NCBI GenBank assembly: GCA_963682165.1
Contig: OY821666.1
Span: 580,771-644,770 of the forward strand
Length of the DNA: 64,000 nucleotides
Source: an uncultured Psychromonas sp.
GTDB taxonomy: Bacteria > Pseudomonadota > Gammaproteobacteria > Enterobacterales > Psychromonadaceae
Direction of reading: 5' to 3'
The notes under the pieces are model-generated. The model made no database searches. It saw nothing but the letters and a program-made list of their open reading frames with translations, and was not told the DNA's origin. The stretch's first letter is position 1; every line of letters begins with the position of its first letter. Shown in pieces: positions 14,356 to 31,490 of the stretch. The position numbers were made by a program, and so were the translations under genes.

Positions 14356-14460
14356 AGGATGCACTACTTTTTGCCCACAAGAGATGCAATAATGGCGAGC
14401 GAGCGAGCGGACTTACTTTGACGCTTTGCGCAACCACAACACTTTGGTGTTCTTTACGCT

Positions 14461-15668: not shown

Positions 15669-15686
15669 AAGGATGCACTACTTTTT

Positions 15687-16320
15687 TCTCGTTACCACGC
15701 GGAAGCGTGGGAATGCATACCTAACTTCATCACTGCGTACATACCTATAGCAACCCATTTTCACCAGCATAATTTCTAGCACTGGAATATTGCCATGGCT
15801 CTGCGTTATCGATAGAACCACGTTTTGCAGGGTTATTGTGGATATACTCAACCGTAAGGGCATAATTTCATTATTTTTAATTAACACAGGGGGACACCTT
15901 CTTGGCAAAACTGATACGATCTATCATGTTTATGCGCTTTTTTATAAAAAGCTAACTGCTGTAAAATTTGTTTAATATTATTTTTGTGTAAATACTCAAG
16001 AAGTAACCTTGCTGTGTATTAATTATAGCGAGCAATATGTCTATCTAATGCTCTGCTTTGAACTACTAAATGACAGTGGTTTTCTAAAATGACAGTGGTT
16101 TTCTAAAATGACATAGACATCCACTGTTAAACCCTCTTTATATAAATGGCGTAGCGAGTCCAGCAAAATAGCAACAGTATCTGGATGGGTAAATACAGGT
16201 ATCGAGTGCAGTATGGTTAGTGTGATGAAATGGGGATGCTTTGGGTTGGTTATTTTGTATCGACTTCTACCCATTGTTTATCTTCCGTATGCATTCCCAC
16301 GGGGGAGCGTGGTAACGAGA
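15687..16320 (-). pseudogene. REP-flanked RAYT (Y1 HUH REP-associated tyrosine transposase) remnant
   Basis: HFITLT...YVILENHCH motif; inverted REPs at 15687-15721 and 16287-16320; a 19-bp tandem duplication near 16068-16110 breaks the frame. Confidence 0.8.
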
Positions 16321-16329
16321 AAAATATTA

Positions 16330-16450
16330 GGGGCTTTGCTCACTTCGCGATGGTTGGATCAAGCTTCATTATCCTGAGTGAAACGCCCTGTGCGGATCCG
16401 CATGCAGGGTATTGTGGGGGTTGATGGTTAAAGATCCTCGGCTACCAGAT
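16330..16450 (+). mobile_element. Class C group II intron 3' remnant (IEP C-terminus plus domains V-VI)
   Basis: Reads GLCSLRDGWIKLHYPE*, then gaaACGCCCTGTGCGGATCCGCATGCAGGG (DV with CGC triad), and ends ...CTACCAGAT. Confidence 0.8.
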
Positions 16451-16711: not shown

Positions 16712-16811
16712 AATTCCACTCTTTTCATTTATCGCATTGCTAAGCGGAAAAGAGCCGTTGGATATAATCGCGAAGCGATGGCCAACTGTTGTTTTCCGTT
16801 TAAGCACCTTG

Positions 16812-16867
16812 TTTCAACACCCGAATAAGGTGCAGGCGAACGCGACACCTATTCTTGTTTATTAGCT
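16812..16867 (-). repeat. attC-like hairpin of the IS91-end family (diverged solo copy)
   Basis: Minus strand AGCTAAT-AAACA-AGAATAGGTG...CACCTTATTC-GGGT-GTTGAAA. Confidence 0.75.
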
Positions 16868-17475: not shown

Positions 17476-17530
17476 AGCTAACGCCTCAATCACCAGCTTT
17501 AGCAAGTCCGAGTGCATTGACTTGCTGAAC
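17476..17530 (-). repeat. attC site abutting the left end of IS91-like copy 1
   Basis: Minus strand GTTCAGC-AAGTC-AATGCAC...GGTGATT-GAGGC-GTTAGCT. Confidence 0.8.
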
Positions 17531-17611
17531 GAAGCCGCTGCGCGAAAGAAAAACTGCGTTAATACTTTCTTTTATGCACCATTCTCGGTGCGCATAAAAG
17601 CAGTATACGCC

Positions 17612-18661
17612 ATGAACACTTCAAATCAACTGCGCTATGACTTTTTATATCAGCAACATTTAACCAACATTACTTTGCAGGGAATGCGCCCTGCTACCAT
17701 TGATGCTTACTCTCGTGCGCTAAGGCTGGTTGCAGGCTATTTTGCTCGTGCACCCGATGCTTTAGATAAAGCTGATTTGACATTGAACTTTGCAAGCCTA
17801 GTCAAAACACACTCTTGACGAATGTTTACATTAGATCGCAATGGCTTGCAATTCTTTTATCGTCATACCCTAGAAAAAGAGTGGGAATGGTTGAATATTG
17901 CTAAACCACCTCAACTAAAACGTATCCCTGATATTATACCATTCGCATTAATATTATGATCAAAATATGGCGAAGTGGAAAATCAGGTAATTCAAGGCGG
18001 AAGTTGTAGCTAATGGTTGTTCCCTTGGCAAAACTTCCAACACAGAAGTAGCTGATTTTACCAAACTAGATGATCACATATTTGATGCGATTGGTATTAT
18101 TACCTGTGAGCAAATTGGCGCGCTTATCTCTCATACAAAGTCGTTGCGCTACAAGGTCTTCTTTCTTGTTTTATATAGTATGGGCTTACGATTAAGTGAA
18201 GCGCTTGAATTAACTATCAATGAGATAGATAGTGTTACAATGACGGTGCATATTCGTTATGGTAAAGGGGGAAAGATAGGTTGTTACCTTTGCCTCACCG
18301 AACTTTAATCGCACTTCGCTACTATTGGAAAACGCATAAACATCCACACTTATTATTTCCCGGAAAAGGGAAAAACAAACAAGCACCAATGGACAAAGGC
18401 GGCATACAAAAAGCACTGAAAAAAGTCATTGCTGAGTTGGGGGTAAATAAAAATATCAGTCCTCATTCACTGCGACATTGCTTTGCAACACATTTATTAG
18501 AGCAAGGTATTGATTTGCGTTCTCTGCAAGTTTTACTTGGCCACCACAGCCTTAATACGACCGCGCGATATACTGAGCTCACCCCACTTAAGCAAAAAGA
18601 TAATGTCATTGCCCTTGAACAGTTAGCCAATAATATCCCAATAAAATGGGAGGCATTATGA
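17612..18661 (+). pseudogene. Tyrosine recombinase (XerD/IntI-like N-terminus) inactivated by a stop, a MITE and a frameshift
   Basis: Reconstructed GLRLSE, GKGGK(D)[14 protein letters not shown] and TTARY; TGA near 17817; 160-bp insert; -1 frameshift at GGAAAGAT. Confidence 0.88.
17937..18096. mobile_element. 160-bp MITE inside the recombinase gene
   Basis: Inverted ends TACCATTCGCATTAATAT / ATATTTGATGCGATTGGTA; TTA duplicated on both sides. Confidence 0.85.
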
Positions 18662-19725
18662 ATCAATTCATCACTTTACTTAAAGCGCATCAAACTGAGT
18701 TTGAGAAATACTATGGCGCTCGGCTAAATCAAGATATTCGCCGAGCAATGAGTGATATGTTGCACTGTAAAAATGATCGCACTCGTTACACACAATGGCA
18801 TTGTAGCCATTGCCAGCATGACCAACAGCAATTGGCATCCTGCGGAAACCGCAATTGTTCACAGTGCTTGCATCAAACCACCTCAAACTGGCTCGCTCGT
18901 CAAACGGATAAATTATTACCAGTCCATTATTTTATGGTGACATTGACTCTGCCATTTCAACTTAGTTCCCTTGCGATGCAACATCCTAAAGCACTTTATA
19001 AAATAATGTTTCAAGTCAGTGCAGAGCTGTTGAAAGGGTTCGCAGCTCGTCAGCAAAAAGGCGAGTTAGGTTTCACCACCGTGCTACACACTCATAATAG
19101 AAAACGGGATTTACACCATCACTTGCATATTATTATTCCAAGTGGACGTTATGATCCTATCAAAAAGCAGTTTTTTAAAGGTGATAAAGCTTACCTATTT
19201 AATGCGCTTTCATTAGCAAAAGTATGGCGAGCAAAAATGATTGATGCCATTAATAAGAATAAAATACTTGCTATCCCCACTGGATTGCCAAAGCAATGGG
19301 TCGTTGACTGTCGAAAAGTAGGTTTTGGATTGTCTTCATTTCAATATTTGTCGCGATACTTGTATCGAGGCGTATTACTGGGTAAAGACATTATCAATAT
19401 CCACAACGGATTAGTGACATTTCAATATAAAAAAGGTGGTTCAAATATAATCAAAATCCGCACTTTACCCGTACTAAAATTTTTATGGTTGATTTTACAA
19501 CACGTACTGCCGAAAGGCTTACAACGCGTTCGAGATTATGGATTTCTAAGAGGGAATGCAAAAAAATTGCGCTTACAAATTCAATTGATCTTAGGCTTGT
19601 TCGTCAAGTCGCCATCTGTTGAAAATGAAGCAAAAGGTAGCGCCGTTCATATTTGCCCATGCTGTCAACACAGTATGAAATTAGTCGGGTTTCACCGACT
19701 GAAGCTTGCTGAGATTGGCTTGTGA
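18658..19725 (+). CDS. IS91-family Y2 HUH transposase with Zn finger
   Basis: CSHC...[23 protein letters not shown]...HHHLH and YLSRY; ATGA overlap with the recombinase stop. Confidence 0.92.
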
Positions 19726-19907
19726 ATAGTTAGTTTTTGACCGAGATCGAAACCATTAAGGGGATGCCGATAAAGAAATAAAAATACAATAAGCCTTTGA
19801 TATGATTGAGTAATGATCGTATGCAGATAAAACTCGCCTCAAGAAAACACCTAAACTTCCCTCTGATTTCACTATTTACTATATAAGAGGCGATCCTTGA
19901 CGGGCTT

Positions 19908-19962
19908 GTTCAACAACCAGATAAGGTGTCGGCTACGCGACACCTATCCTTGTTTATTATGT
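19908..19962 (-). repeat. attC-like terminal hairpin at the right end of IS91-like copy 1
   Basis: Minus strand ACATAAT-AAACA-AGGATAGGTGTCG...CGACACCTTATCT-GGTT-GTTGAAC. Confidence 0.8.
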
Positions 19963-20017
19963 TGTTTCAGGCATGATATTATGTCTGCTGAGCTTGACTT
20001 TAGGTGTATAGCTACTT

Positions 20018-21871
20018 TTAGTTGTTTGTTTGAAATGAGTCGTAAGTGTCTATAAATTCTCGATGATACTCTTTGGATTGTTCTAGTAATTCTCTATATG
20101 TCTTCACAAAAACTTCACCTGATTGAATGTATGTCTTTTCTTTACTTCTAAAAAGAGGATTTGAAGATTTTTCACCACCAACAACGTAGCAGACTACCCT
20201 TGAAAAGCCGGTTTCAGATGCATACTTTTCAGTCAAGAAAACACCATACACATATGCTTGCTCAAGCGCGTTTGCATCAACCTTATATGTACTTCTTTTA
20301 ATTTCTATAACATATAAAATTTCACCTAGAGCATTGCTACATAAAAAATCAATTCTTCTATCCTTTCCATCCAATTTATCATCGGGGTAAGTTTCCTTGA
20401 GCAGCTTTGAATATGTTACTTCATCTCGAAACTCTAGAATTCTTGGATCAAGAAGCCAAGAAAACTTTTTTAGAAAATTATGTAAAGTAGGTACTTCTTT
20501 AGTATCAGTATTTATATAGTCTTCAAATTTTTTAATTACTTCAACCCGTGAATATGCGAGATCTCTAAATTGCTTTGACTCAATAGATTTCCAGTCATCC
20601 ATTAATTTTAGTAATTGTGGAATCTGTTCAGGCGAAGATATATCGGCAATCTGGGAGGCATAATCTTTAAAAGTTTTATTTTCAAACTTATCTATTACAT
20701 TACCAATAATTTCAGTTGACTCTTGAATATCTATATTTGGATTTTCTAAAATTGGTTCTATTATTTTATTGCTTAGTTCCTTTTCGTAAATTGGGAGCTT
20801 TTCTTGCCATTCAGTAATATCTAGCTTCTGCTCTTCTTTAATAGTCGCTTTCTTTAAATTTCTTCTTTTTGAGCGCCACTCTGAACCAACCTTTTTTATT
20901 ATTTTCTGTAAATACTCTTGTAACTCTTTTGTTTTATCATGCTCCCAATTCAAAGAATGACGATCAGTTGAAATTACATCAATCTCAAATTCATCAATAA
21001 AATCTACTTCGAGATAACCAGTTACATAACTGTGAAATTGATCAGTATCTCTCAAACCATAAAAGTTAGCCGTATTAACTATTTTCCCTCTAGAAGTAAG
21101 GTAAACACCACGCATTTCTGTATCTTTTACTGGGGTTTTAAGTGTGATAACTAAACCTTTTATACTTTCCCAAAACTCATAATCTGAATCATATTTTTCA
21201 TTAGGGAAATCCCAAGTAAACTGGGTATTTAGTTCTGAATATTTAAGTTCATTGGTGACTGAAGTGCTATTGGAATTATTTAATGATAGAGAAACTTTCA
21301 TTTCTCCAAAAATAAGGAATTGTTTGGATAGACTTAATGCTATATTCTCAAGAGAAAAAGATGACTTTCTTCTCATTTTCTTTAGTTTTAACACGGTTCC
21401 TTTAGGTTCTTGTGTACTTAGGTTATGCTCTATTATTTCTGGATTATATGAAGTATCTTTACTCTCTTTAATTTCTATCAAGTCCATTTTAAAGTGATTT
21501 TTTAAACCGTTCTTTATGGAAATAACTTCAATTACATCACATATTCCAAAAACGGATAATTTCCCCAGCCCTTTTTTTCCTATTACCTTTCTTCCTTTAT
21601 CAGTTGTTGTTTTAGTGGCATCCTTTCGCCTGTTTCTACCAATAACTAAGTATTTCTGGTTAAGCTCATCGAATGTCATTCCATCGCCATCATCCGTATA
21701 AATAATTTCTTTTTCAGAGTCCATATCTACAAAATCAATGGATACTATCTCTGCATCAGCATCCCATGAATTCGATACTAATTCGGATAAAACACTAGGC
21801 AATTTTGAATAGAGTGATATTCCTAAGTGTTCAATTGTATTGGGGTCAAATTTTAAAACTAACTCTGCCAT
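20018..21871 (-). CDS. GHKL (MutL/MORC-like) ATPase with a C-terminal PD-(D/E)xK-like nuclease domain
   Basis: ELVSNSWDADA, DDGDGM and GKKGLGKLS GHKL boxes; RIDF...VIEIKR near the C-terminus; overlaps the methyltransferase stop. Confidence 0.8.
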   Translation of the reverse strand: MAELVLKFDPNTIEHLGISLYSKLPSVLSELVSNSWDADAEIVSIDFVDMDSEKEIIYTDDGDGMTFDELNQKYLVIGRNRRKDATKTTTDKGRKVIGKKGLGKLSVFGICDVIEVISIKNGLKNHFKMDLIEIKESKDTSYNPEIIEHNLSTQEPKGTVLKLKKMRRKSSFSLENIALSLSKQFLIFGEMKVSLSLNNSNSTSVTNELKYSELNTQFTWDFPNEKYDSDYEFWESIKGLVITLKTPVKDTEMRGVYLTSRGKIVNTANFYGLRDTDQFHSYVTGYLEVDFIDEFEIDVISTDRHSLNWEHDKTKELQEYLQKIIKKVGSEWRSKRRNLKKATIKEEQKLDITEWQEKLPIYEKELSNKIIEPILENPNIDIQESTEIIGNVIDKFENKTFKDYASQIADISSPEQIPQLLKLMDDWKSIESKQFRDLAYSRVEVIKKFEDYINTDTKEVPTLHNFLKKFSWLLDPRILEFRDEVTYSKLLKETYPDDKLDGKDRRIDFLCSNALGEILYVIEIKRSTYKVDANALEQAYVYGVFLTEKYASETGFSRVVCYVVGGEKSSNPLFRSKEKTYIQSGEVFVKTYRELLEQSKEYHREFIDTYDSFQTNN

Positions 21872-23094
21872 AATAATCCTTTAATTGATTCGGCTATTTC
21901 TAGAGACATTAGAGGTGGAACTGCATTTCCAATTTGTTTAAATGCAGATGTTCTCCCACCTTCAAAAAAGTAATCATCAGGAAAAGATTGAATTCTAGCT
22001 GCTTCCCTTACAGAGAGGGAGCGTACTTGTTTATCATCAGGATAAATATAGTAATGCCCATCTTTTGCAATATGTGCAACCATCGTATGAGAAAGACCTT
22101 TAATATCTACAACTTTAAACCTATCTAAAAATGACTTCTCATTTTTATGAGTTTTTAATCTCTTAGGTAAATCGGGATATTTTAAACGTTCATTGTCATG
22201 AAGCCATTTGTTGATAGCTATCTTATATATTTCCAAATCTCTTGCGTTGTGAGGTCTTGCAATATGTTGAGATACGTAATCCACGCCATTTCTTAGATTA
22301 AATTTATTTAAGTAATCGGTAGTATCTGTCTGGTAAGTTGTAATGTTATTTTGCTCACCTGGAAACAGGGGCTTTAAATCAGAAAAAATGTCTTTCATTG
22401 TGTAACTATGAGTTATTTGCTTAAAATTAGGATATGAAAATTTTATACCTTTTTTCCACCCAATTAAAATTATTCTTCTTCGTTTTTGTAAAACACCAAA
22501 ATCTTCAGATTTTTGTATTGAATAATCTAAAAAATAGCCAATTCTTTTAAAATATGCCTGCATATTTTTAAAGTAACTTCCATCGTTTGCAGAAATCAAA
22601 CCTAACACATTTTCAAAAACGAAAACTTTTGGTGTATATCTTTTCAAAAATTTCGCATACTCTTTATAGAGAACATTTCTAGGGTCGTTCTCCATATTGT
22701 TTTTATCTCTAGACCGACCAACCAAAGAGTATGCCTGACAAGGGGGACCTCCAATTATCAAATCAACATCATTGGCATACCTATCAATTTGATCGAAAAT
22801 ACCTTTATTATTTTCTTCACCTATCGAAATATTGATGATCGAATCAGAAAAATATTCCCCATAATTTTTTACAAAGTTTAATCTATCTATATTTCCTAGA
22901 ATATAGTCATGGTATGCTTTTAAGTTACCTTTCTTTTTTAATGAATGATAAATGAGTCTTGTTTCAAGCGTTTTACATGCATTAAGGTCGACCTCTACAT
23001 GAGCCAAAGGAGTATACCCAGCATTCATAAATCCCTCAGACAGTCCACCCGCCCCTGAGAATAAATCTAAATATTTTAATTTCTTATTAGCCAC
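21859..23094 (-). CDS. DNA (cytosine-5) methyltransferase
   Basis: DLFSGAGG, GGPPCQAYS, ENV, QKRRR, REAARIQSFPD and QIGNAVPP. Confidence 0.95.
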   Translation of the reverse strand: MANKKLKYLDLFSGAGGLSEGFMNAGYTPLAHVEVDLNACKTLETRLIYHSLKKKGNLKAYHDYILGNIDRLNFVKNYGEYFSDSIINISIGEENNKGIFDQIDRYANDVDLIIGGPPCQAYSLVGRSRDKNNMENDPRNVLYKEYAKFLKRYTPKVFVFENVLGLISANDGSYFKNMQAYFKRIGYFLDYSIQKSEDFGVLQKRRRIILIGWKKGIKFSYPNFKQITHSYTMKDIFSDLKPLFPGEQNNITTYQTDTTDYLNKFNLRNGVDYVSQHIARPHNARDLEIYKIAINKWLHDNERLKYPDLPKRLKTHKNEKSFLDRFKVVDIKGLSHTMVAHIAKDGHYYIYPDDKQVRSLSVREAARIQSFPDDYFFEGGRTSAFKQIGNAVPPLMSLEIAESIKGLLWQS

Positions 23095-23173
23095 AATCCC
23101 CCCTGTTTCCGAACGCTCTATACCCGTATGCTATTTTAGCATTTTTCAGTAAATAGTACGACGAGTGTTTTAC

Positions 23174-23231
23174 ACATAACGCTGCATTCACCATGCGAGC
23201 GCAGCGAGTCCGGTGCAATGCTTTGTTGAAC
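23174..23231 (-). repeat. attC site abutting the left end of IS91-like copy 2
   Basis: Minus strand GTTCAAC-AAAGC-ATTGCAC...GTGAAT-GCAGC-GTTATGT. Confidence 0.88.
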
Positions 23232-23316
23232 GAAGCCGCTGCGCGAAAGAAAAACAAACTGCGTTAATACTTTCTTTTATGCACCATTCTCGGTGCGCAT
23301 AAAAGGAGTATACGCC

Positions 23317-24366
23317 ATGAACACTTCAGATCAACTTCGCTATGACTTTTTATATCAGCAACATTTAACCAATCTCACTCTGCAGGGAATGCGCCCTGCA
23401 ACCATTGATGGTTACTCACGGGCAGTGAGGCGGATTGCAGGCTATTTTGAGCGCTCTCCCGATGCACTAGATAAAGCTGATTTGAAATCATACTTTTCAA
23501 GCTTAATCAAAACACACTCTTGGAGTACGGTAAAACTTGATCGTAACGGCTTGCAATTCTTTTATCGTCATACCCTAGAAAAAGAGTGGGAATGGTTGAA
23601 TATAGTTAAACCCCCTCAACTAAAACGTATCCCTGATATTATACCATTCGCATTAATATTATGATCAAAATCTGGCGAAGTGGAAAATCAGGTAATTCAA
23701 GGCGGAAGTTGTAGCTAATGGTTGTTCCCTTGGCAAAACTTACAACACAGAAGTAGCTGATTTTACCAAGCTAGATGAGCACATATTTGATGCGATTGGT
23801 ATTATTACCTGTGAGCAAATTGGCGCGCTTATTTCCCATACAAAGTCGTTGCGCTACAAGATCTTCTTTCTTGTTTTATATAGTATGGGCTTACGATTAA
23901 GTGAAGCGCTTGAATTAACTATCAATGAGATAGATAGTGTTACAATGACGGTGCATATTCGTGATGGTAAAGGGGGAAAGATAGGTTATTACCCTTGCCT
24001 CACCGAACTTTAATCGCACTTCGCTATTATTGGAAAACGCATAAACATCGACACTTATTATTTCCCGGAAAAGGCAAAAATAAACAAGCACCAATGGACA
24101 AAGGAGGTATACAAAAAGCACTGAAAAAAGTCATTGCTGATTTGGGAATAAATAAAAATATCAGCCCTCATTCACTGCGCCATTGCTTTGCAACACATTT
24201 ATTAGAGCAAGGTATTGATTTGCGTTCTCTGCAAGTTTTACTTGGCCACCACAGCCTTAATACCACCTCGCTATATACTGAGCTCACTCCACTTAAGCAA
24301 AAAGATAACGTCATTGCCCTTGAACAGTTAGCCAATAATATCCCAATAAAATGGGAGGCATTATGA
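23317..24366 (+). pseudogene. Tyrosine recombinase with the same MITE (23642-23801) and the same -1 frameshift as copy 1
   Basis: ORFs 23293-23664 and 23995-24366 plus the intervening frame reconstruct a full recombinase. Confidence 0.88.
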
Positions 24367-25430
24367 ATCAATTCATCACTTTACTTAAAGCGCATCAAAC
24401 TGAGTTTGAGAAATACTATGGCGCTCGGCTAAATCAAGATATTCGCCGAGCAATGAGTGATATGTTGCACTGTAAAAATGATCGCACTCGTTACACACAA
24501 TGGCATTGTAGCCATTGCCAGCATGACCAACAGCAATTGGCATCCTGCGGAAACCGCAATTGTTCACAGTGCTTGCATCAAACCACCTCAAACTGGCTCG
24601 CTCGTCAAACGGATAAATTATTACCAGTCCATTATTTTATGCTGACATTGACTCTGCCATTTCAACTTAGATCCCTTGCGATGCAACATCCTAAAGCGCT
24701 TTATAAAATAATGTTTCAAGTCAGTGCTGAGCTGTTGAAAGGGTTCGCAGCTCGTCAGCAAAAAGGCGAGTTAGGTTTCACCACCGTGCTACACACTCAC
24801 AATAGAAAACGAGATTTACACCCTCACTTACATATTATTGTTCCAAGTGGACGTTATGATCCTATCAAAAAGCAGTTTTTTAAAGGAGATAAAGCTTACC
24901 TATTTAATGCGCTTTCATTAGCAAAAGTATGGCGAGCAAAAATGATTGATGCCATTAATAAAAGTAAAATACTTACTATCCCCACTGGGTTGCCAAAGAA
25001 ATGGGTTGTTGACTGTCGAAAAGTAGGTTTTGGCTTGTCTTCATTTCAATATTTGTCGCGATACTTGTATCGAGGCGTATTACTGGGTAAAGATATTATC
25101 AATATCCACAACGGATTAGTGACATTTCAATATAAAAAAGGAGGCTCAAATATAATCGAAACTCGAACTTTACCCGTACTCAAATTTTTATGGTTGATTT
25201 TACAACACGTACTGCCGAAAGGCTTACAACGCGTTCGAGATTATGGATTTCTAAGTGGGAATGCAAAAAAATTGCGCTTACAAATTCAATTAATATTAGG
25301 CTTGTTCGTCAAGCCGCCATCTGTTGAAAATGAAGCAAAAGGTCACGCCGTTCATATTTTCCCATGCTGTCAACACAGTATGAAATTAGTCGGATTTCAT
25401 CGACTGAAGCTTTCTGAGACTGGCTTGTGA
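24363..25430 (+). CDS. IS91-family Y2 HUH transposase
   Basis: About 15 aa differences from the copy 1 protein (counted from the ORF track); LHTH...HPHLH and YLSRY. Confidence 0.92.
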
Positions 25431-25612
25431 ATTGTTAGTTTTTGACCTAGATCGAAACCATTAAGGGGATGCCGATAAAGAAATAAAAATACAATAAGCC
25501 TTTGATATAATTGAGTAATGATCGTATGCAGATAAACCTCGCCTCAAGAAAACACCTAAACTTCCCTCTGATTTCACTATTTACTATATAAGAAGCGATC
25601 CTTGACGGGCTT

Positions 25613-25667
25613 GTTCAACAACCAGATAAGGTGTCGGCTACGCGACACCTATCCTTGTTTATTATAT
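25613..25667 (-). repeat. attC-like terminal hairpin at the right end of IS91-like copy 2
   Basis: Identical to 19908-19957, then TATAT instead of TATGT. Confidence 0.8.
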
Positions 25668-25672
25668 TTTTG

Positions 25673-26206
25673 TTATTGACCAAACAATTGCTCAACTGTT
25701 TTCATAGGGAGAAACATACGGATACGCCCATTATGTTCACACAATACCTCGAAACCATATTTAGCATAAAAGCTTTGCGCGGAATCAGTTAAACAATCAA
25801 CCACAACCGCATAAGCTCTCATATGATGATTTACTTCCCATAAGTAATTTAACGCCTTAATTAAGCTTATTTTTCCTAACCCGCTCCCATGAAATTCTTT
25901 ATGTACTGCTAACTGAGCCAACAAAAATACAGGGATAGGGTAACGTGGTAATTTTTTAGCCATGTTAACTGGTAATGTTTCTCGAGATATTGAGCTTGGA
26001 GCAACACTATAAAATGAACAAATTGGGAATTTCTTATTTAACAATGGCATTTTTGAAGGCAAAACCATGGTTCTACTGATGCCTGCTTGCATATGTTTTG
26101 CTGCTTGAATTTTTATAAACACATTCAATTCATGTTCACCACAATCAAATGAATTACGATCGTGAACTGATTTTTTTAGCTCTTCAAATTCATTTGCCCA
26201 ACTCAT
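25673..26206 (-). CDS. GNAT acetyltransferase toxin (AtaT/TacT type)
   Basis: HDRNSFDCGEHELN, PIPVFLLAQLAVH, GSGLG and FYAKYGF. Confidence 0.9.
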   Translation of the reverse strand: MSWANEFEELKKSVHDRNSFDCGEHELNVFIKIQAAKHMQAGISRTMVLPSKMPLLNKKFPICSFYSVAPSSISRETLPVNMAKKLPRYPIPVFLLAQLAVHKEFHGSGLGKISLIKALNYLWEVNHHMRAYAVVVDCLTDSAQSFYAKYGFEVLCEHNGRIRMFLPMKTVEQLFGQ

Positions 26207-26472
26207 TTAAAACCGCCCTCTTTTGTAAATGCAGCAGCTTCAAATAGAGCTTTACTTGGACTTTCAGCTTTATCACAAGCGTCAATAAATTTATCAAAAA
26301 CATTGGCTTCGACTGTAATAATTTCGTGTTCCGCAATTACATGTGAAGCGTCTTCATCCATTAAACGAACAACGTATTCAGTGAGGCTTTTTAAGCCTAA
26401 AAGAGCAGAAGCTTTTTCTGCTTTAGCTTTGATTTCTTCATCAAGCCTAATATCTAAACGTGCAGTAGCCAT
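26203..26472 (-). CDS. DUF1778 (RHH) antitoxin
   Basis: ARLDIRL...KAEKASALLG...LTEYV; overlaps the GNAT start. Confidence 0.9.
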   Translation of the reverse strand: MATARLDIRLDEEIKAKAEKASALLGLKSLTEYVVRLMDEDASHVIAEHEIITVEANVFDKFIDACDKAESPSKALFEAAAFTKEGGFK

Positions 26473-26487
26473 AACAACCTCCAGTTG

Positions 26488-26542
26488 TACGGAGTCATTC
26501 CGTAATAAAACAAAGTATAAACCTTAAATAAAATTATAACAA
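26488..26542 (-). promoter_or_regulatory. Promoter and palindromic operator of the DUF1778-GNAT TA
   Basis: TTGTTA-17 nt-TATACT; TACGGA-N5-TCCGTA palindrome at 26488-26504. Confidence 0.6.
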
Positions 26543-26573
26543 CATGTACAGCAACTTTACGGATTAAGAAAAA

Positions 26574-26915
26574 ATATAACAGTATTATTAGTAGGAAACT
26601 TTCCTTCTAATTCCTAGAAAAGTTTCCGCCTATCTTCATTTTAGTATTTTAATTTTTTCTATCAATTGCTATCAAAAACAATATGTTAGCGGCATTTATA
26701 GGTTTTGACTGAGATAAAATCAGGAAAGTTTCCTATATAATTGCCAGTTAGTAGCAAACCTTCCGGCTAATTCCGCATAAAGTTTCTGTCTAATTGCAAG
26801 CTACTCTTTTTCTTTTATATGTCAATTGTATATAAAACAAACTATTAGCTAAGTTTATGGAATGTGAAGAAGATCAAATCAGCAAAGTATCCAGCTAATT
26901 ACGCATTAGTTAGAA
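26574..26915 (-). repeat. Long tandem attC-family repeat, copy D (about 180-bp attC plus a diverged 169-bp second unit)
   Basis: Arms ATTATATAGGAAACTTTCC / GGAAAGTTTCCTACTAAT with R'' ACTAAC and R' GTTATAT; the second unit aligns with the first. Confidence 0.8.
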
Positions 26916-26932
26916 AGGATGCACTACTTTTT

Positions 26933-27546
26933 TCTCATTCCCACGCTCCCGCGTGGGAATGCATACCTAACTTCATCACTGCGCACATATCTCTAGCAAG
27001 CCATTTTCACCATCATAATTTCTAGCACTGAAATATCGCCATTGCTCTGCTTTATCGAGATAACCACGTTTTGCATGGTTATTGTGGATATACTCAACCG
27101 TAAGGGCATGATTTCATTATTTTCAATTAACACAGGGGCGCACCTTCTTGGCAAAACTGATAAGATTTATCGTGTTTATGCGCTTTTTTATAAAAAGCCA
27201 ACTGCTGTAAAATTTGTTCAATATTATTTTTGGGTAAATACTCAATAAGTAACCTTGCTGTGTATGAATTATAGCGAGCAATATCTCTACCTAATGCTTT
27301 GTTTTGAACAACTAAATGACAGTGGTTTTTTAAAATGACATAGGCATACACTGTTAAACCCTCTTTAGATAAATGGCGTAGCGAGTCAAGCAAAATAGCA
27401 ACAGTATCTGGATGGGTAAATACAGGTATTGAGTGCAGTATGGTTAGTGTGATGAAATGGGGATCCTCTGGGTTGGTTATTTTGTATCGACTTCTACTCA
27501 TTGTTTAGCTTGCGTATGCATCCCCACACGGGAGAGTGGGAACGAG
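26933..27546 (-). pseudogene. REP-flanked RAYT remnant, copy 2
   Basis: ORF 27127-27501 with HFITLT and YAYVILKNHCH; REPs at 26933-26967 and 27514-27546. Confidence 0.82.
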
Positions 27547-27554
27547 CAAAATCT

Positions 27555-27677
27555 GAGAGACTTTGCTCACTTCGCGATGGTTGGATCAAGCTGCATTATC
27601 CTGAGTGAAACGCCCTGTGCGGATCCGCATGCAGGATCTTGTGGGGGCTGATGGTTAAATACCCTCGGCTACAAGAT
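27555..27677 (+). mobile_element. Class C group II intron 3' remnant inserted in the HigBA cassette attC
   Basis: DV/DVI ending CTACAAGAT, followed by TAGAGCG, the remainder of the R'' complementary to core GTTAGAG at 29156-29162. Confidence 0.82.
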
Positions 27678-27684
27678 TAGAGCG

Positions 27685-28770
27685 TTATACTGTCCACTTA
27701 TACCTAATTCTATGATGGTGGTTTGTATGTGGTAACTTTTTATCATGCTGTAATCTACCAGTTACAATACCTGGAAAGATTCCAATTTTTTTTGAAAAGT
27801 CTTTGATTGATGAACTAGAAAAATCACAACCTTTGACAAATTTATTGTATGCATCAAAAGGTATTAGAGACTTTTGAGAAAAAATATCTGCTTCTTGCTC
27901 TTGTTTCTGATATTGCAGATCAAGTTTACCGTTCTCTAAGAAAGTAACTCTTTTATCATGAAGTAAAATATGACCTATTTCATGAAATAAACTAAACCAG
28001 AATATATCTGACCACGCACCACGCAGTGACATCATAATTACAGCTTTATTCTTACCAATCCAAAAGGTTGCACCTGTTGTATATGATTTTGCAAACGTTG
28101 GCACTAGGGCTAGAACAACACCACAATCAGCTAAAGTACTTTTAATTTTCTCAATTAACTCGTTTGGCTCAATGACATTTGTAAGCTCTCTAAGTTTAGG
28201 AATACTTTGCTCAAGTTTTCCTTTATTAAATTGAGCTACTTCTCTTTTGCCCGCAATAACGTGGCCAGCTCTAAGCCATGTAGCTAACGATTCATGAGAG
28301 ACTGTGGTCTTTTCTTGTTGCCTAAACGCGGGAGCAAATTCTTTTACTGTTCGGATATTTTTTAAAGAGGAAACCCCAAAAAACTTTCTTAATTCAACAA
28401 CTTTTTTTAACTTATCTCTAGTTTTCTCAACCAAATTAAGTTTGCTTAATTGTAAATATGGAAACTTATCAATTAAGTTTTCTTCAAGTTTAATGTCTTC
28501 CTGCTGTTGCTGTTTAGCTAAAATCAAGCGGAATTCAGTTTCAAGGTTACTCCATAACTGTGCGGAAACACCTAAAACTTGCTCTAGTTGTAATGCTGTT
28601 TCAGGAGTTATTGCTTTGTCACCTTTAACTATCTCATTAATAGCCTGTGGGGGGCGTCCCATTCTTCTTGCTAGCTCTGCTTGACTAATTTCTAGATCTT
28701 CTAACACTTCTTCCAAGTATTCACCTGGGGGAATTGCCATATCAGAAATAAATGCTGTTTCAGTCATCAT
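27685..28770 (-). CDS. higA: HigA antitoxin fused to an ImmA/IrrE (DUF955) metallopeptidase domain
   Basis: PPGEYL, SQAELARRMG and INEIVKG HTH motifs; FSLFHEIGHILLH HExxH. Confidence 0.9.
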   Translation of the reverse strand: MMTETAFISDMAIPPGEYLEEVLEDLEISQAELARRMGRPPQAINEIVKGDKAITPETALQLEQVLGVSAQLWSNLETEFRLILAKQQQQEDIKLEENLIDKFPYLQLSKLNLVEKTRDKLKKVVELRKFFGVSSLKNIRTVKEFAPAFRQQEKTTVSHESLATWLRAGHVIAGKREVAQFNKGKLEQSIPKLRELTNVIEPNELIEKIKSTLADCGVVLALVPTFAKSYTTGATFWIGKNKAVIMMSLRGAWSDIFWFSLFHEIGHILLHDKRVTFLENGKLDLQYQKQEQEADIFSQKSLIPFDAYNKFVKGCDFSSSSIKDFSKKIGIFPGIVTGRLQHDKKLPHTNHHHRIRYKWTV

Positions 28771-29062
28771 AATGCTTACTCACTTCTTCAATTAAGGCTA
28801 TATCTAAACAGTCACCTGCAACTGTAAAGATCAACCTATAAAAACCTGTCAATTTGACTGCATACTGTCCTTTTCTATTACCTTTTAAATGGTGGCATCT
28901 GAGTCCTGGCAGTGACATAACCTCATCTAGGTTTTTAGCTGCCTTTATTAAATTAACTCTTTGAATATACTTTTTGGCAATTTGGCTCCCAAACTCTTTT
29001 TGAGCTTGCTTGCCTTGGCAATAGCATTTCTCAAGCTTTTTAGTCTTGAAATTTACAATCAA
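28760..29062 (-). CDS. higB: HigB/RelE-family toxin
   Basis: FKTKKLEK, LPGLRCHHLKGNRKGQYAVKL and YRLIF. Confidence 0.9.
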   Translation of the reverse strand: MIVNFKTKKLEKCYCQGKQAQKEFGSQIAKKYIQRVNLIKAAKNLDEVMSLPGLRCHHLKGNRKGQYAVKLTGFYRLIFTVAGDCLDIALIEEVSKHYDD

Positions 29063-29100
29063 ACTTATATCCTAAGTATAGTACTGACAAAACGATAACG

Positions 29101-29145
29101 TTCACCTTTTGGGTGAATGCTACAATAGGAAAGTTGAACTGTCAA
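29101..29145 (-). promoter_or_regulatory. higBA promoter and operator
   Basis: TTGACA-17 nt-TAGCAT; TTCACC-N5-GGTGAA palindrome at 29101-29117. Confidence 0.65.
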
Positions 29146-29195
29146 GCATTATACGCTCTAACGAGCCTGTAGAATTATTGGTTTTATTTATTTGT

Positions 29196-29490
29196 GCACG
29201 CCCAACATGGGTCTGAACTAATGAGGTGAAAGTACTCTGTAGGAAGGTCTCCATCCGTAGCGAGTATATGGTTATTAGGTGCTAATTACTCGCAATGGTA
29301 AGGGCTTACCCGCGAGGTTTGATCCTAAGGAAGCCAGCCGCAAAACTGCGAGCTGATGAATAAAAACATCATATGAGGCTGGAGGCGAGTTGGCACAAGA
29401 TGACGAAGCTATGCGATCTAACGGCCACCGTAAATGATGCAGTCGCTTCGCGAAAGTTCATGCCCTTATCTGGGGAGATCTGCTTAACAC
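29196..29490 (+). mobile_element. Class C group II intron 5' remnant (domain I region)
   Basis: TTGT|GCACGCCCAACATGGG start, resembling the GTGCGCCC..CATGGG 5' end and TTGT target of attC-targeting IIC introns; GC-rich structured non-coding stretch. Confidence 0.7.
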
Positions 29491-29504
29491 GTGATTGGTA
29501 AATA

Positions 29505-29699
29505 ACCAGTAAGGCATGGATCTAAATGGCGTAGCGAGTCCAGCAAAATAGCAACAGTATCTGGATGGGTAAATACAGGTATCGAGTGCAGTATGGTTAG
29601 TGTGATGAAATGTGGTGCTCTGGGTTGGTTATTTTGTATCGACTTTTTTCCATTGTTTAGCTTGCGTATGCATTCCCACGCAGGAGCGTGGGAACGAGA
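29505..29699 (-). pseudogene. Third RAYT 5' fragment with REP
   Basis: PHFITLTILHSIPVFTHPDTVAILLDSLRHL; REP at 29666-29699. Confidence 0.75.
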
Positions 29700-29700
29700 A

Positions 29701-30111
29701 AAGGGGGAATGCAAAAAAATTGCGGTTACAAATTCAATTAATCTTAGGCTTGTTCGTCAAGCAGCCATCTGTTGAAAATGAGGAAAAAGGTCGCGCCGTT
29801 CATATTTGCCCATGCTGTCAACATAGTATGAAATTAGTCGGGTTTCACCGACTGAAGCTTTCTGAGATTGGCTTGTGAATAGTTAGTTTTTGACCGAGAT
29901 CGAAACCATTAAGGGGATGCCGATAAATAAATAAAAATACAATAAGCCTGTGATATGATTGAGTAATGATCGTATGCAGATAAAACTCGCCTCAAGAAAA
30001 CATCTAAACTTCCCTCTGATTTCACTATTTACTATAATAAGAAGCGATCCTTGACGGGCTTGTTCAACAACCAGATAAGGTGTCGGCTACGCGACACCTA
30101 TCCTTGTTTAT
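29701..30111 (+). mobile_element. 3' fragment of the IS91-like element, including its right-end hairpin (30062-30116)
   Basis: [19 protein letters not shown]...CPCCQH tail and 3' non-coding region shared with copies 1 and 2. Confidence 0.85.
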
Positions 30112-30118
30112 TAAGCCT

Positions 30119-30823
30119 CTATACCTTTCCATACCTGTATGACTTACCCTTTTTAAGGACATACTCTTCTAGAACTTTGTTTGAAAGTATTTCTTGCTTG
30201 TTTTTACAAAAGACACGAGCATGTTCTACTAGTTCTATAAATTTTTCTATTTGCTTAATACTCCAAGAATCTGGCTGCAACAATTCAGTACACATTCTTG
30301 GGAGATTTCCACGATTCTTCTTGGGGTCTAGAAGAATGATGATCTTTGAGTACTCTATTTTTTTCGCACCACTATGTGCTGCAAAATTATTTCTATACGA
30401 CATAGCTTCTTCGTGCGTTTCATGAAACTCTTCGCCTAAATTTACTTTTTCAAGCTTTACACGTCGACCTTCGCAGCTAGTGAAGCACTTTCCATATATA
30501 GTTAACGCAGCGACGAAAAGCCCCTTTATAGTATTGAATATTTCTCGATTTTCAAGGTTAACGATATTTTTAGTCGCATTAACATGGAGCTCATCTTGGC
30601 TTGCAAGTGTAATCACTGAATTTAGCCAGATTTTACAATTACGTAAGTCCTTTTCAATAAGTGTATATGCCGCGAATGCGTTCGCCTTTGGTGTATCAAG
30701 GACCACTCTATGAGCCCTGTTTCTCCTGTAGAAATACCTATTATAGAATTTGGACTCTTTAGGCAAAACAACCGTTTCAAACGTCCAGTTCGGATCATCC
30801 TCAAATAGCTTTTTTCTTGGCAT
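30119..30823 (-). CDS. Putative HEPN-domain cassette protein
   Basis: RNNFAAH (Rx4H-type) motif in a helical protein; bounded by complementary GTTAAGC/GCTTAAT sites. Confidence 0.65.
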   Translation of the reverse strand: MPRKKLFEDDPNWTFETVVLPKESKFYNRYFYRRNRAHRVVLDTPKANAFAAYTLIEKDLRNCKIWLNSVITLASQDELHVNATKNIVNLENREIFNTIKGLFVAALTIYGKCFTSCEGRRVKLEKVNLGEEFHETHEEAMSYRNNFAAHSGAKKIEYSKIIILLDPKKNRGNLPRMCTELLQPDSWSIKQIEKFIELVEHARVFCKNKQEILSNKVLEEYVLKKGKSYRYGKV

Positions 30824-30837
30824 GAAATTCCTTGTAG

Positions 30838-31179
30838 GCTTAACAGTATTATTAGTAGGAAACTTTCCTTCTAATTCCTAGAAAAGTTTCCGCCTATCTT
30901 CATTTCAGTATTTTAATTTTTCTATAAATTGCTATCAAAAACAATATGTTAGCGATATTTATAGGTTTTGACTGAGATAAAATAAGGGAAGCTTCCTATG
31001 TAATTGCCAGTTTAGTAGCAAACCTTCCTGCTAATTCCGCAGAAAGTTTTAGTCTAATTGCAAGCTACTCTTTTTCTTTTATATGTCAATTGTATATAAA
31101 ACAAACTATTAGCTAAGTTTATGGAATGTGAAGAAGATCAAATCAGCAAAGTATCCGCCTGATTACGCATTAGTTAGGA
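30838..31179 (-). repeat. Long tandem attC-family repeat, copy E (array-proximal)
   Basis: Near-identical to copy D. Confidence 0.8.
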
Positions 31180-31490
31180 AGGAGGCACTACTTTTTACCC
31201 ACAAGAGATGCAATAATGGAGAAATATAAACAACTCACTTGTGAACAAAGATAGCCATTTACTCGTATCAGAAAACAGCTACGATGCAAACAAAAATAAT
31301 ATCATGACTGGAAGTAAATCAATCCTGCATTTCTAGATAACTAAAACGCAATGCTGAGTATAGAACTTTAGCATGTCAAAACATTGAGTATAAAATAGGG
31401 TGCGGATTGGCCTGTTTTGGAGGATAACAACTTGGGTCAACAAGATACTAACAAAGCACTTATTTACACCTTAAAGTATAACTTGCAAGC

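Follow-up and report, generated by a model that had tools for sequence, protein, structure and literature searches.

The window (the whole 64-kb stretch of DNA analyzed here) contains a cassette region, at ~10.4-31.4 kb with housekeeping genes on either side, in which a segment with a recombinase gene, a transposase gene and a terminal hairpin recurs next to attC sites. No intI gene was found within the window. What kind of mobile unit is this, and does its hairpin serve the element or the cassette array? We consider it probable that the element is an autonomous, attC-preferring insertion sequence (IS) of the IS91 family that moves as a unit.

Repeat search and pairwise alignment bore out an earlier note on this DNA, in which two full copies and a right-end fragment were said to share a common hairpin. 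The earlier coordinates agree to within 1-2 nt with our bounds, for which the junction is written as G|TT:

17525..19956, + strand: IS copy 1, 2432 bp, bounds from 77 related loci and an empty allele in run X5; left end (C)TGAACGAAGCCGCTGCGCG, right hairpin ...CCTTGTTTA
23226..25661, + strand: IS copy 2, 2436 bp
29703..30110, + strand: IS copy 3, a 3' fragment with the last ~60 tnp codons, the 3' untranslated region and the hairpin

On its left side, copy 3 runs into an unrelated repeat, and the two meet at GGGAATGCA, a microhomology. The final 77 nt are 99-100% identical across all three copies, and the 40-nt hairpin core has three exact occurrences, with 0 expected. The transposase genes of the window copies differ (dS 0.09), so these copies are not recent duplicates. 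Each full copy carries the same pair of genes:

17613..18661, + strand: Xer-like tyrosine recombinase pseudogene of copy 1, with an in-frame stop, a ~163-bp insert at ~17932-18094 and one more frameshift
23318..24366, + strand: recombinase pseudogene of copy 2, with frameshifts as in copy 1 and the 163-bp insert at 23637-23799
18646..19725, + strand: Y2 HUH transposase gene of copy 1, 359 aa, intact
24351..25430, + strand: Y2 transposase gene of copy 2, 359 aa, intact

The copy 1 transposase has the HUH motif LHTHN, tyrosines in YLSRYLY and an N-terminal Zn-binding domain. It matches Pfam PF04986 (Y2_Tnp, E = 6e-33) and PF14319 (Zn_Tnp_IS91, E = 1e-21) and scores 317 bits against NCBIfam NF033538 (IS91 transposase), which has a cut-off of 125. 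Across 17 sequences, LHTHN and Y-x3-Y are conserved and the HUH and tyrosine residues are invariant. The protein thus has the Y2_Tnp domain, HUH motif, two tyrosines and N-terminal Zn-binding domain of the IS91 family, and with the tyrosine recombinase gene upstream, the Pfam and NCBIfam matches support the earlier identification of an IS91-type Y2 element with a recombinase gene.

The recombinase gene is dead in both window copies, which share two frameshifts and the 163-bp insert; most of the ~16-20 copies of the source organism are free of these defects. Intact orthologs of 293-303 aa are present in L002 and other loci, and the gene is full length in 53 of the 77 loci, a conservation from which it follows that it must do something. 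Both genes are under purifying selection (dN/dS, 0.08-0.21 for tnp and 0.05-0.13 for int). The closest matches of the recombinase are XerA-, XerC- and XerD-like. We rejected an integron integrase as its identity: against the TIGR02249 model it scores 166.9 bits in two stretches, below the cut-off of 265, it matches the IntI4 structure (2a3v) in two stretches with ~24 residues missing, and it is devoid of the IntI-specific insert.

The right end of the element is a module, whose predicted DNA fold has a z score of -3.0:

19902..19956, + strand: right-end module of copy 1, composed of GGGCTTGTTCAAC, the hairpin GATAAGGTGTCG-GCTACG-CGACACCTATC, and then CTTGTTTA
25607-25661 and 30056-30110, + strand: the same module in the other copies

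GGGCTTGTTCAAC is an inverted repeat of the left end, and the hairpin is imperfect. Subterminal imperfect palindromes lie at both ends, as in the IS91 family: GCCGC-NNN-GCGGC at the left, 9 nt from the terminus, and the hairpin at the right, 8-9 nt from the terminus. TTGAAC at the left end is complementary to the subterminal GTTCAA. Both ends are conserved in the 77 loci, which were fetched from at least 13 genera, despite transposases that are only 47-70% identical. In the hairpin stem, six of seven pairs show compensatory changes, the stem is 94% paired, and 0 of 500 shuffles were as good. With these changes the hairpin is conserved over at least 13 genera, and it always comes after the 3' untranslated region of the element, which supports the view that it is part of the element and no attC of a neighbor. 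Its AAC/GTT outer pairs are invariant and followed by an internal loop and one bulged A on the 5' arm; conservation extends to the GCTNCG loop and the flanking GGGCTTGTYCAAC. The hairpin terminus reads GTTTA in the window and GTTTG in nearly all relatives. In one metagenome contig, we found an exact head-to-tail junction, ...CTTATTTG|TTGAAC..., and the predicted fold of the joined ends has an energy between -17 and -19 kcal/mol (z score, -3.3 to -4.5).

The sequences that adjoin the copies in the window tie them to attC sites:

19957..19962, + strand: TTATGT, R'' remainder of a methylase/ATPase cassette, complements ACATAA at 23174-23179
25662..25667, + strand: TTATAT, R'' remainder of a TacA/GNAT cassette, complements ATATAA at 26574-26579
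30111..30116, + strand: TTAAGC, R'' remainder of a cassette with an ORF at 30119-30823, complements GCTTAA at 30838-30843
17482..17524, + strand: attC body left of copy 1, from the AGCTAA|C boundary to ...GACTTG
23180..23225, + strand: attC body left of copy 2, from ACATAA|C to ...GCTTTG

The bases 3' of the hairpin vary per copy, and each hexamer is the exact reverse complement of the closing 6 nt of the same cassette (ACATAA|C at 23174, ATATAA|C at 26574 and GCTTAA|C at 30838). The claim that these bases are the R'' complement of the neighboring cassette's core is therefore exact for 3/3 copies. The two attC bodies that the left end was said to adjoin are different, and both are matched by an attC-family covariance model on the + strand, with 23.6 bits for the copy 1 flank (17476-17530) and 20.3 bits for the copy 2 flank (23174-23231).

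The unique flanks of the related loci, 64 on the left and 62 on the right, gave a consensus, ...A-N4-YTTG | TTARRY. On the left, A is found at -9 in 61/64 flanks, T at -3 in 59/64, T at -2 in 62/64 and G at -1 in 63/64; on the right, TT (62/62) is followed by A (60/62). The left tetranucleotide is NTTG in 59-63 of 64 flanks and CTTG in 43 of 64. Across the 77 loci, the right hairpin is conserved, as the earlier note had proposed to check in relatives, and likeness of the left flanks between genomes ends at the attC boundary. Uninterrupted members of this ~92-nt attC family, taken from the same arrays, terminate in ...CTTG|TTARRY, and CTTGTTA is invariant in the local attC family. A check for empty alleles found one directly: in public run X5, the neighboring cassette has an uninterrupted attC, ...GCATTG|TTATGT, with homology beginning at 19957, and intact sister attCs agree with it. 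Neither the empty allele nor the sister sites reveal a target-site duplication beyond the ambiguous 5-nt core. The insertion spot is the inverse-core (R'') end of the attC, inside the 5-nt core TTGTT, and, as in the IS91 family, a CTTG/GTTC-type tetranucleotide adjoins the element and the target is not duplicated.

An attC-fold test, with 240 TTGTT sites as controls and their 1st percentile as a stringent threshold, placed at least 32 of 63 left flanks beyond that threshold. At least half of the insertions thus lie in attCs by the fold test, and ~80% do so by eye. About 10 of 63 insertions lie outside attCs, 9 of which retain A at -9 (read by eye). Of the earlier claim that the element targets attC R'', the spot stands, fixed by the flanks, the sister attCs and the empty allele, while exclusivity does not: attC targeting is a strong preference, not an exclusive one.

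The element is found in many marine Gammaproteobacteria, almost always at the one fixed attC spot. In the source genome, read depth (~1760-2230, against 108.8 for unique sequence) indicates ~16-20 copies, and an identical IS end is joined to four other flanks in mollusc metagenomes. Internally deleted derivatives of 402, 522 and ~1580 bp retain both ends, and one genome has two copies with one shared deletion at different sites. The non-attC sites, the deletion derivatives, the ~16-20 copies and purifying selection together argue for a transposable IS rather than a passive cassette.

Our explanation starts from the observed anatomy, ends, target consensus, empty sites, orientation bias, multiplicity and selection on both genes. 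The unit runs from the left TTGAAC and small palindrome through the Xer-like recombinase gene and the overlapping Y2 HUH transposase gene to the 3' untranslated region, the subterminal inverted repeat of the left end, the structured hairpin and ...TTTG. Its length is ~2.3 kb in general and 2.43 kb here because of the 163-bp insert. It would move most likely by an IS91-type single-stranded rolling-circle or circle route, for which the head-to-tail junction in one metagenome contig and the multi-copy amplification are indirect evidence. It inserts without target duplication within the core TTGTT of A-N4-YTTG|TTA. In the ~92-nt attC family that is common to chromosomal cassette arrays of marine Gammaproteobacteria, this sequence forms the foot, made up of spacer and inverse core (R''), and does not vary. 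The element is found between the gene of a cassette and the attC body, in most cases antisense to the cassette genes. The hairpin would act as the element's own cis-acting end and, when joined to the left end, could form a single long stem-loop built like an attC. The right junction re-creates "hairpin + TTG|TTA", which can be hit again to yield tandem copies. Cutting and joining by the Y2 enzyme, the choice of transferred strand and the role of the recombinase are inferred, and the Y2 enzyme may act on the bottom strand, as assigned in the earlier note.

On the tnp-sense strand, the left end is preceded by CTTG, and on the opposite strand both junctions read YAA|C. Either the geometry is inverted relative to IS91, or YAA|C on the opposite strand describes the cut better. 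The crossover coincides exactly with that of integron integrases, G|TT (AA|C), and therefore a tyrosine recombinase could equally make the junctions. This leads to a two-enzyme pathway, which we regard as unlikely, in which the Y2 transposase only copies out a single-stranded circle, the joined ends fold like an attC, and the element's own Xer-like recombinase or host IntI integrates this folded site into a folded attC by single-strand exchange at TTGTT (AA|C on the other strand). Donor junction and target have a 5-nt core in common, which is a classical signature of site-specific recombination, the crossover falls where integron recombination takes place (AA|C / G|TT), the joined ends form a two-box stem-loop, and A at -9 and TTA, on both sides of the cut, resemble recombinase arm contacts. 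The recombinase is nearest to Xer/IntI-type enzymes, and int is under purifying selection in a fixed position overlapping tnp (53/77 loci). However, a derivative missing ~570 bp of int with tnp kept is present at two sites in one Moritella genome, although complementation in trans is possible; int is dead in both window copies; the recombinase lacks the IntI-specific insert, the IntI model and IntI4 structure being matched in two pieces; and the IS91 family offers no known precedent. If true, such a pathway would combine rolling-circle transposition with single-strand recombination of the integron type, in effect in a transposon that brings its own cassette-insertion machinery.

We think it improbable that the hairpin is a working replacement attC and that the element plus the left attC body forms an IntI-excisable cassette, with the array kept functional. 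The hairpin does have general attC architecture (AAC...GTT outer pairs, an internal loop, a bulged stem and a short loop), its 5' arm reads YAAC-RCC-N4-TAAG by eye, as in the local attC family, and in a circle formed by excision, GTTCAAC would pair with GTTGAAC. Yet against covariance model R1, built from 18 intact attCs, it scores 4.6 bits (+ strand) and 4.2 bits (- strand), at noise level on either strand, compared to 16.8-46 bits for five real attCs of the window. It has its bulge on the 5' arm, whereas attC bulges of the host arrays are on the 3' arm, and the window variant has A for G of the would-be GTT, which reads ATT. The proposal that the hairpin gives the interrupted cassette a new attC-like site finds no support in these scores or in the position of the bulge. 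The right hairpin as an ordinary attC without an element, an outcome raised in the earlier note, was not seen: in ~0.7 Mb of related arrays (77 loci), no cassette carries it without the element. One solo hairpin precedes a cassette:

16812..16861, + strand: solo decayed right-end hairpin module without an IS body, GAATAAGG/CCTATTC variant
16727..16811, + strand: long (~92-nt family) attC body directly left of the solo hairpin, 44.2 bits, ends in ...CACCTTG

This module, the only one of its kind, sits between the attC body and TTAGCT, the start of a toxin-antitoxin (TA) cassette that closes with AGCTAA|C at 17476. It is decayed, the old attC body is still adjacent, and it looks like a deletion product between CTTGTTGAAC and CTTGTTCAAC repeats. 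Excision of the element as a cassette through the left TGAAC and an internal box had also been suggested; no exchange at the GTYCAA|C point was seen. The attC body left of copy 1 differs from the attC of the same cassette in the empty allele, so the flanks have been reshuffled and the label "array-preserving" is unsupported. Many copies in the same orientation would favor deletions over preservation of an array.

Could sequence alone explain the target? It is very doubtful that TTGTTA, with A at -9, suffices, that the attC link is incidental and folding irrelevant, and that the hairpin is mainly a transcription terminator. The non-attC sites carry the same motif, the invariant CTTGTTA of the attC family would supply it, and the hairpin is GC-rich with a T-rich run following. 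Against this, A-N4-YTTGTTA occurs at 0.22 per kb on both strands, roughly a thousand times per 4-5 Mb genome, in which attCs number no more than a few hundred; nevertheless, half or more of the insertions (~80% by eye) are in attCs, and the GCTNCG loop and flanking GGGCTTGTYCAAC are conserved far beyond the needs of a terminator. With so sparse a motif and most insertions in attCs, this enrichment, from which the structural part of the target preference is deduced, suggests that folded or single-stranded attC is preferred over the motif alone.

An ordinary integron cassette of two genes with the hairpin as attC, moved only by host IntI and inverted via rare wrong-strand recombination, is highly improbable: its first six bases, TTGAAC, complement the GTTCAA before the hairpin as in any cassette and the junction is G|TT, but the hairpin scores 4.6 bits against 17-46 for real attCs, the ends are conserved in sequence as well as structure, tnp is under purifying selection and insertion is consistently at the attC end not cut by IntI, and 16-20 copies per genome, non-autonomous deletion derivatives, ~10 insertions outside attCs and a window without intI led us to reject an IntI-only, low-copy gene cassette.

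An attC-preferring IS91-family IS is best viewed beside the systems that it resembles. IS91 itself has subterminal palindromes at both ends, targets 5'-CTTG/GTTC and has a functional single-stranded circle (PMC13181058). The element shares with IS91, IS801 and IS1294 a Y2_Tnp transposase with a Zn-binding domain, the absence of a terminal duplication, subterminal palindromes, a tetranucleotide-type target and the existence of joined-end junctions; the end of its upstream ORF overlaps the tnp start, as does orf121 in IS91. Protein identity to classical plasmid-borne members is only 21-25%, and the upstream ORF, unlike that of IS91, codes for a tyrosine recombinase of 300 aa. The element's target, A-N4-YTTG|TTA, is longer and overwhelmingly in attC sites; TTA 3' of the cut and A at -9 are not a known feature of IS91 targets. 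The IS91 tetranucleotide adjoins oriIS, downstream of tnpA and on the other strand, with terIS upstream, whereas the CTTG of the element is upstream of its genes. Its ends, in contrast to those of IS91, are inverted repeats that pair when joined.

An IS91-family subgroup in ISfinder has an upstream phage-integrase-like ORF and includes ISShvi3, ISSod25, ISSde12, ISAzo26 and others. The gene pair and size of ISShvi3-type elements are as in ours, and the Shewanella relatives in our locus set, at 47-51% identity, share its ends. A survey of Shewanella described an ISShvi3-like element adjoining an attC, read it as a new cassette and stated that no IS interrupted attC sites; the same survey mentions the IS1111-attC group as attC-associated insertion sequences (PMC9229058). 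In the searchable literature, we found no published description of attC targeting, a target consensus or a structured end for the ISShvi3-type subgroup, and an attC target preference seems not to have been described previously for the IS91 family. IS1111-attC elements (IS110 family; ISPa21, ISKpn4, ISPst6) also target attC in an orientation-specific manner, with an unrelated DEDD-type transposase, at a different attC position and without a recombinase gene.

Integron cassettes share with the element the complementary TTGAAC ... GTTCAA boxes, an imperfect palindrome with AAC/GTT outer pairs and a G|TT junction; they differ from it in the 4.6-bit hairpin score, its multiple copies, deletion derivatives and non-attC sites, and its use of the attC end not cleaved by IntI. 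Integration of CTX-phage and IMEX through XerCD, and integron attC x attI recombination, offer a possible analogy, in that a folded single-stranded site would be used by an Xer/IntI-type enzyme. A parallel in position had been drawn to group IIC-attC introns, and both position and orientation agree: the spot follows ...CTTG / TTGT at the inverse-core end, between cassette gene and attC body, and the orientation is opposite to the cassette genes. These introns are retroelements (ribozyme plus reverse transcriptase) that rely on RNA-DNA target pairing, while the element is a DNA transposon. It was rejected as such an intron, since it encodes a recombinase and a transposase and the Rfam group II intron match in the window, at 29306-29464, lies outside it. 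Introns and element are found side by side in the same arrays, including that of the window.

Copies of the insertion sequence (IS), in which an Xer-like recombinase gene (int) and a Y2 transposase gene (tnp) precede a terminal hairpin, were located in the window by repeat search, direct reading and pairwise alignment. With the junction written as G|TT, their coordinates are as follows:

17525-19956, + strand: copy 1, full, ~2.43 kb
23226-25661, + strand: copy 2, full, ~2.43 kb
29703-30110, + strand: copy 3, a 408-bp right-end fragment

All three share a right-end module made up of GGGCTTGTTCAAC, AACCA and an imperfect hairpin, GATAAGGTGTCG-GCTACG-CGACACCTATC, followed by CTTGTTTA; the 40-nt core of this end occurs exactly three times, against zero occurrences expected by chance. 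Copies 1 and 2 are ~95% identical, with a dS of 0.09 between their tnp genes, and so do not represent a recent duplication. Copy 3 is joined on its left to an unrelated repeat via a 9-nt microhomology, GGGAATGCA. The surrounding cassette array is flanked by PNP and EamA/RelA genes. An integron with its own integrase was ruled out for the window, since a Pfam search of 20 ORFs found no intI.

Each full copy encodes an intact 359-aa transposase carrying the Pfam domains Y2_Tnp and Zn_Tnp_IS91 and scoring 317 bits against the NCBIfam IS91-family transposase model (cut-off, 125). The tyrosine-recombinase gene int lies upstream and overlaps the tnp start, bearing out the identification of an IS91-like Y2 element with a recombinase partner. 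In copies 1 and 2, int is disrupted identically by two frameshifts and a 163-bp insert bordered by a 6-nt repeat:

about 17932-18094: insert in int of copy 1
23637-23799: insert in int of copy 2

Reads from the source organism lack the insert in ~35-40% of IS copies (joint 23636->23800, depth 850 versus about 1160-1510), and most copies have an extra A that mends the frameshift in the int of the window; thus, intact int genes exist in the source genome. Intact orthologues elsewhere are Xer-like proteins of 293-303 aa. They matched the integron-integrase model and the IntI4 structure in two pieces only, below the cut-off, and therefore do not have the IntI-specific insert. The gene is full length in 53 of 77 loci, with dN/dS values of 0.05-0.13 (0.08-0.21 for tnp).

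The ends were compared across 3 metagenome loci and 77 genome loci from Psychromonas, Moritella, Colwellia, Pseudocolwellia, Pseudoalteromonas, Motilimonas, Agarivorans, Shewanella, Vibrio, Aliivibrio, Photobacterium, Psychrobium and Rheinheimera, the transposases of the genome loci being 47-70% identical to that of the window. The right end has throughout the conserved form CGGGCTTGTYCAAC-ACCC-hairpin-CTTRTTTG, after which come TTA and variable bases, and the left end the form TTGAACGAAGCCGC-NNN-GCGGCAGA, preceded by ...YTTG. Short contigs of 2.27-2.33 kb terminate exactly at these ends, as is typical of collapsed repeats. Without exception, the hairpins of these loci are located after the 3' untranslated region of an element. 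When 33 distinct right ends were aligned, compensatory changes affected 6 of the 7 inner-stem pairs and 94% of cells were paired, a covariation that no shuffled or slid control came near. These data make the hairpin a structured end of the element itself, maintained by selection; a constant right end of its own had been claimed from the window alone. Variant right ends also occur: in one locus, the hairpin is replaced by other DNA after GGGCTTGTCCAAT (L033, 7298), in another the stem is deleted (L024, 2419), and in a third the hairpin is partly duplicated in tandem (L021, 7277-7380).

The bases 3' of the right ends differ, being TTATGT for copy 1, TTATAT for copy 2 and TTAAGC for copy 3. Each is the reverse complement of the last six bases of its own cassette (ACATAA|C at 23174, ATATAA|C at 26574 and GCTTAA|C at 30838), and this complementarity is the signature of the cassette's own inverse core. 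To the left of copies 1 and 2 lie two different attC bodies on the + strand (23.6 and 20.3 bits with a covariance model of the local attC family), and the cassette genes of the window are on the - strand. The earlier note had described exactly this arrangement of flanks. The target consensus, derived from unique flanks (64 left, 62 right), is A(-9, 61/64)-N4-C/T(-4)-T-T-G | T-T-A-R-R-Y, where the crossover can be placed anywhere inside the shared core TTGTT. Of 63 left flanks, at least 32 had attC-fold scores beyond the 1st percentile of a control set (240 TTGTT sites), and visual inspection put the number of whole or half attCs at about 50. Roughly 10 of 63 sites are outside attCs, 9 of them retaining the A at -9 and the TTG|TTA core, so that the proposed attC targeting stands as a preference and its exclusivity does not. 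The motif alone cannot account for this bias, because at ~0.22 per kb the full target motif is far too frequent.

Similarity of left flanks between genomes ends at the attC boundary, ~92 nt from the junction. The left attC body, 80-93% identical between genera, was considered as a component of the mobile unit and dismissed, since intact, element-free members of its ~92-nt family, ending in ...CTTG|TTARRY, occur in the same arrays and on the same strand. An alignment of 18 such attCs (A3; 12 loci from Psychromonas, Motilimonas, Agarivorans, Colwellia, Pseudocolwellia and Shewanella genomes and one metagenome contig) has 76% mean identity and the invariant blocks AACGCC, AAAT and CTTGTTA, the last in 18/18 intact sites; such conservation is unusually high for attC sites of different genera.

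An empty allele was found in a public sequencing run (X5), in which the methylase/ATPase cassette of the window, at ~95% identity, carries an uninterrupted attC, ...CTCTTGAATTGCATTG|TTATGTTG..., across the insertion junction of copy 1, as the targeting proposal predicts; homology to the window begins exactly at 19957. Other runs place the right boundary of this cassette at a canonical AA|C, 23179|23180. For the TacA/GNAT cassette, the runs sharing it stop short of its left end and give no empty allele.

In ORFs to the right of the element, 80% of coding bases are on the opposite strand. One locus (L003, ~3400-3542, - strand) has a second, inverted copy at the R' end of an attC, abutting the other end of the DUF3024 cassette that the first copy adjoins; thus, both ends of an attC-bounded cassette can be targeted, and orientation is a bias, not a rule. 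Group IIC-attC introns occupy the same spot in the same orientation (CTTG|TGTACGCCC... in L035, L037 and L044), confirming the suspected sharing of the site. These introns are known to lie on the bottom strand, separating the gene from its attC and running against cassette transcription (PMC3001079). The window has one such remnant:

29170-29520, + strand: 5' part of a group II intron starting ...TTTATTTGT|GCACGCCCAACATGG (Rfam group-II-D1D4-3 at 29306-29464, 86.9 bits)

It is oriented like the IS copies and is truncated at 29520 by an unrelated repeat.

The element is mobile on several lines of evidence. In the sequencing runs of the source organism, its word depth is about 1760-2230 versus 108.8 for an adjacent unique cassette, a ratio that corresponds to roughly 16-20 copies. 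Mollusc metagenomes have an identical right end beside four other flanks. Some derivatives (402, 522 and about 1580 bp long) have internal deletions and retain both ends, and one Moritella genome has two copies with a common deletion (~570 bp of int missing) at different attCs. A metagenome contig (L081, 4735-4762, - strand) contains an exact head-to-tail junction, ...CCTATTCTTATTTG|TTGAACGAAGCC..., of tandem or circle type. In the source organism (runs X1/X2), a right-left junction with six extra bases, ...GTTTA-TTATTG-TTGAAC..., which corresponds to window positions 19959 -> 23223, has ~2x single-copy depth and is a near-tandem pair of elements somewhere in that genome. Joined ends fold together, as TTGAACGAAGCC pairs with GGCTTGTTCAA, into a predicted single long stem-loop (-17.4 and -18.9 kcal/mol; z = -3.3 and -4.5).

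The earlier note further proposed that the hairpin serves the interrupted cassette as a replacement attC. By eye, the hairpin has an attC-like outline, with YAAC-RCC-N4-TAAG in its 5' arm as in the local attC family. With the model of that family, it scored 4.6 (+) and 4.2 (-) bits, a noise level, against 17-46 bits for real sites, a gap that persists even for attCs with almost no central loop, and its bulge is on the opposite arm; no intI is present in the window. An ordinary array attC was rejected, given this score and the constant association with the element: in ~0.7 Mb of arrays, we found no cassette with the hairpin and without the element, and the only solo hairpin of the window is decayed, its old attC body still adjoining:

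16727-16811: long attC body, 44 bits
16812-16861: decayed solo hairpin, between this attC body and TTAGCT

TTAGCT is the start of a TA cassette closing with AGCTAA|C at 17476, and the likeliest origin of the solo hairpin is loss of the IS body between near-identical CTTGTTGAAC and CTTGTTCAAC. A rebuilt attC finds no support here and is improbable. The attC body to the left of copy 1 differs from the attC of the same cassette in the empty allele; flanks have therefore been exchanged, an outcome that recombination between numerous same-sense copies would be expected to produce.

IS91 has subterminal palindromes at both ends and a 5'-CTTG/GTTC target, and inserts as a single-stranded circle (PMC13181058). 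The best reading of our data is a related process, in which an IS91-type single-strand transposon would insert at the foot of folded attC sites, with which its extended target coincides. On the opposite strand, both junctions read YAA|C. Two loci (L002 and L003) have a common left flank and different right flanks, a signature of one-ended transposition. Four 5'-truncated copies from Motilimonas and Colwellia (L040, L070, L071 and L073, at ~5980-6000 in each) break within 120 nt of each other near the tnp start (reference positions 1021-1142), next to upstream DNA that is unrelated and not attC. The shared left flanks and right-end-retaining truncations point faintly to an origin at the hairpin end; set beside the IS91 literature, these hints to oriIS and terIS conflict. 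A rather improbable alternative is a two-enzyme model in which the conserved recombinase might perform the integration step; in its favor, the crossover lies exactly at G|TT (AA|C on the opposite strand), the point of integron integrase cleavage, and the core is common to donor and target.

Besides the IS, the window contains the following repeats and ORFs:

16087-16386, 27314-27613 and 29520-29702: repeat family, 93-98% identity, ending in a GC hairpin, TTCCCACGC..GCGTGGGAA, then CGAGAAAA
27127-27501, - strand: 124-aa ORF in that family, no Pfam match
11990-12226, 14048-14398, 15333-15760, 26577-26990 and 30841-31222: 240-400-nt repeat family, starting exactly at cassette boundaries
10923-11951, - strand: cassette-borne 342-aa RelA_SpoT-domain ORF, inside the array
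32600-34834, + strand: full-length housekeeping RelA/SpoT gene, just outside the array

The 124-aa ORF was dropped as a RAYT-type Y1 transposase for want of a Pfam match. The 240-400-nt repeats start as ...ATATAA|CAGTATTATTAG or ...GCTTAA|CAGTATTATTAG and hold 81-nt subrepeats and the same GC hairpin as the first family; the one at 12226 closes ...ACATATCTTGTTTG|TTATAT, resembling the right terminus of the IS. These repeats gave no match to the attC model and could be giant attCs or another attC-resident nonautonomous element. The 342-aa protein is small alarmone synthetase-like and possibly a toxin.

With 16-20 same-sense copies in a single genome, the element is a likely, integrase-independent cause of cassette deletion and reshuffling in chromosomal arrays. 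It also offers a natural system for the study of folded-DNA-target recognition by a single-strand transposase or an Xer-like recombinase. An IS91 subgroup with an integrase-like ORF is already catalogued (ISShvi3, ISSod25 and others), and its unexplained recombinase gene gains a testable role. A survey of Shewanella described one element of this subgroup beside an attC as a new cassette and stated that no IS interrupted attC sites (PMC9229058). Interrupted attCs and the element hairpin can be mistaken for new cassettes in integron annotation, and one published case seems to be such an error. In the literature searched, which did not cover ISfinder, attC targeting, the target consensus and the structured end are undescribed in the IS91 family. 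The transposases of classical plasmid IS91/IS1294 are 21-25% identical and too distant for comparison of the ends; on the tnp-sense strand, the canonical CTTG here adjoins the end that lies upstream of the genes, whereas in IS91 the reverse holds. To our knowledge, the only attC-homing mobile elements are IS1111-attC insertion sequences and group IIC-attC introns. The present element, which is widespread among marine Gammaproteobacteria (at least 13 genera) and sits exactly where those introns insert, would be the third kind and would differ from both in mechanism, being an HUH/Y2 single-strand transposon partnered by a tyrosine recombinase.
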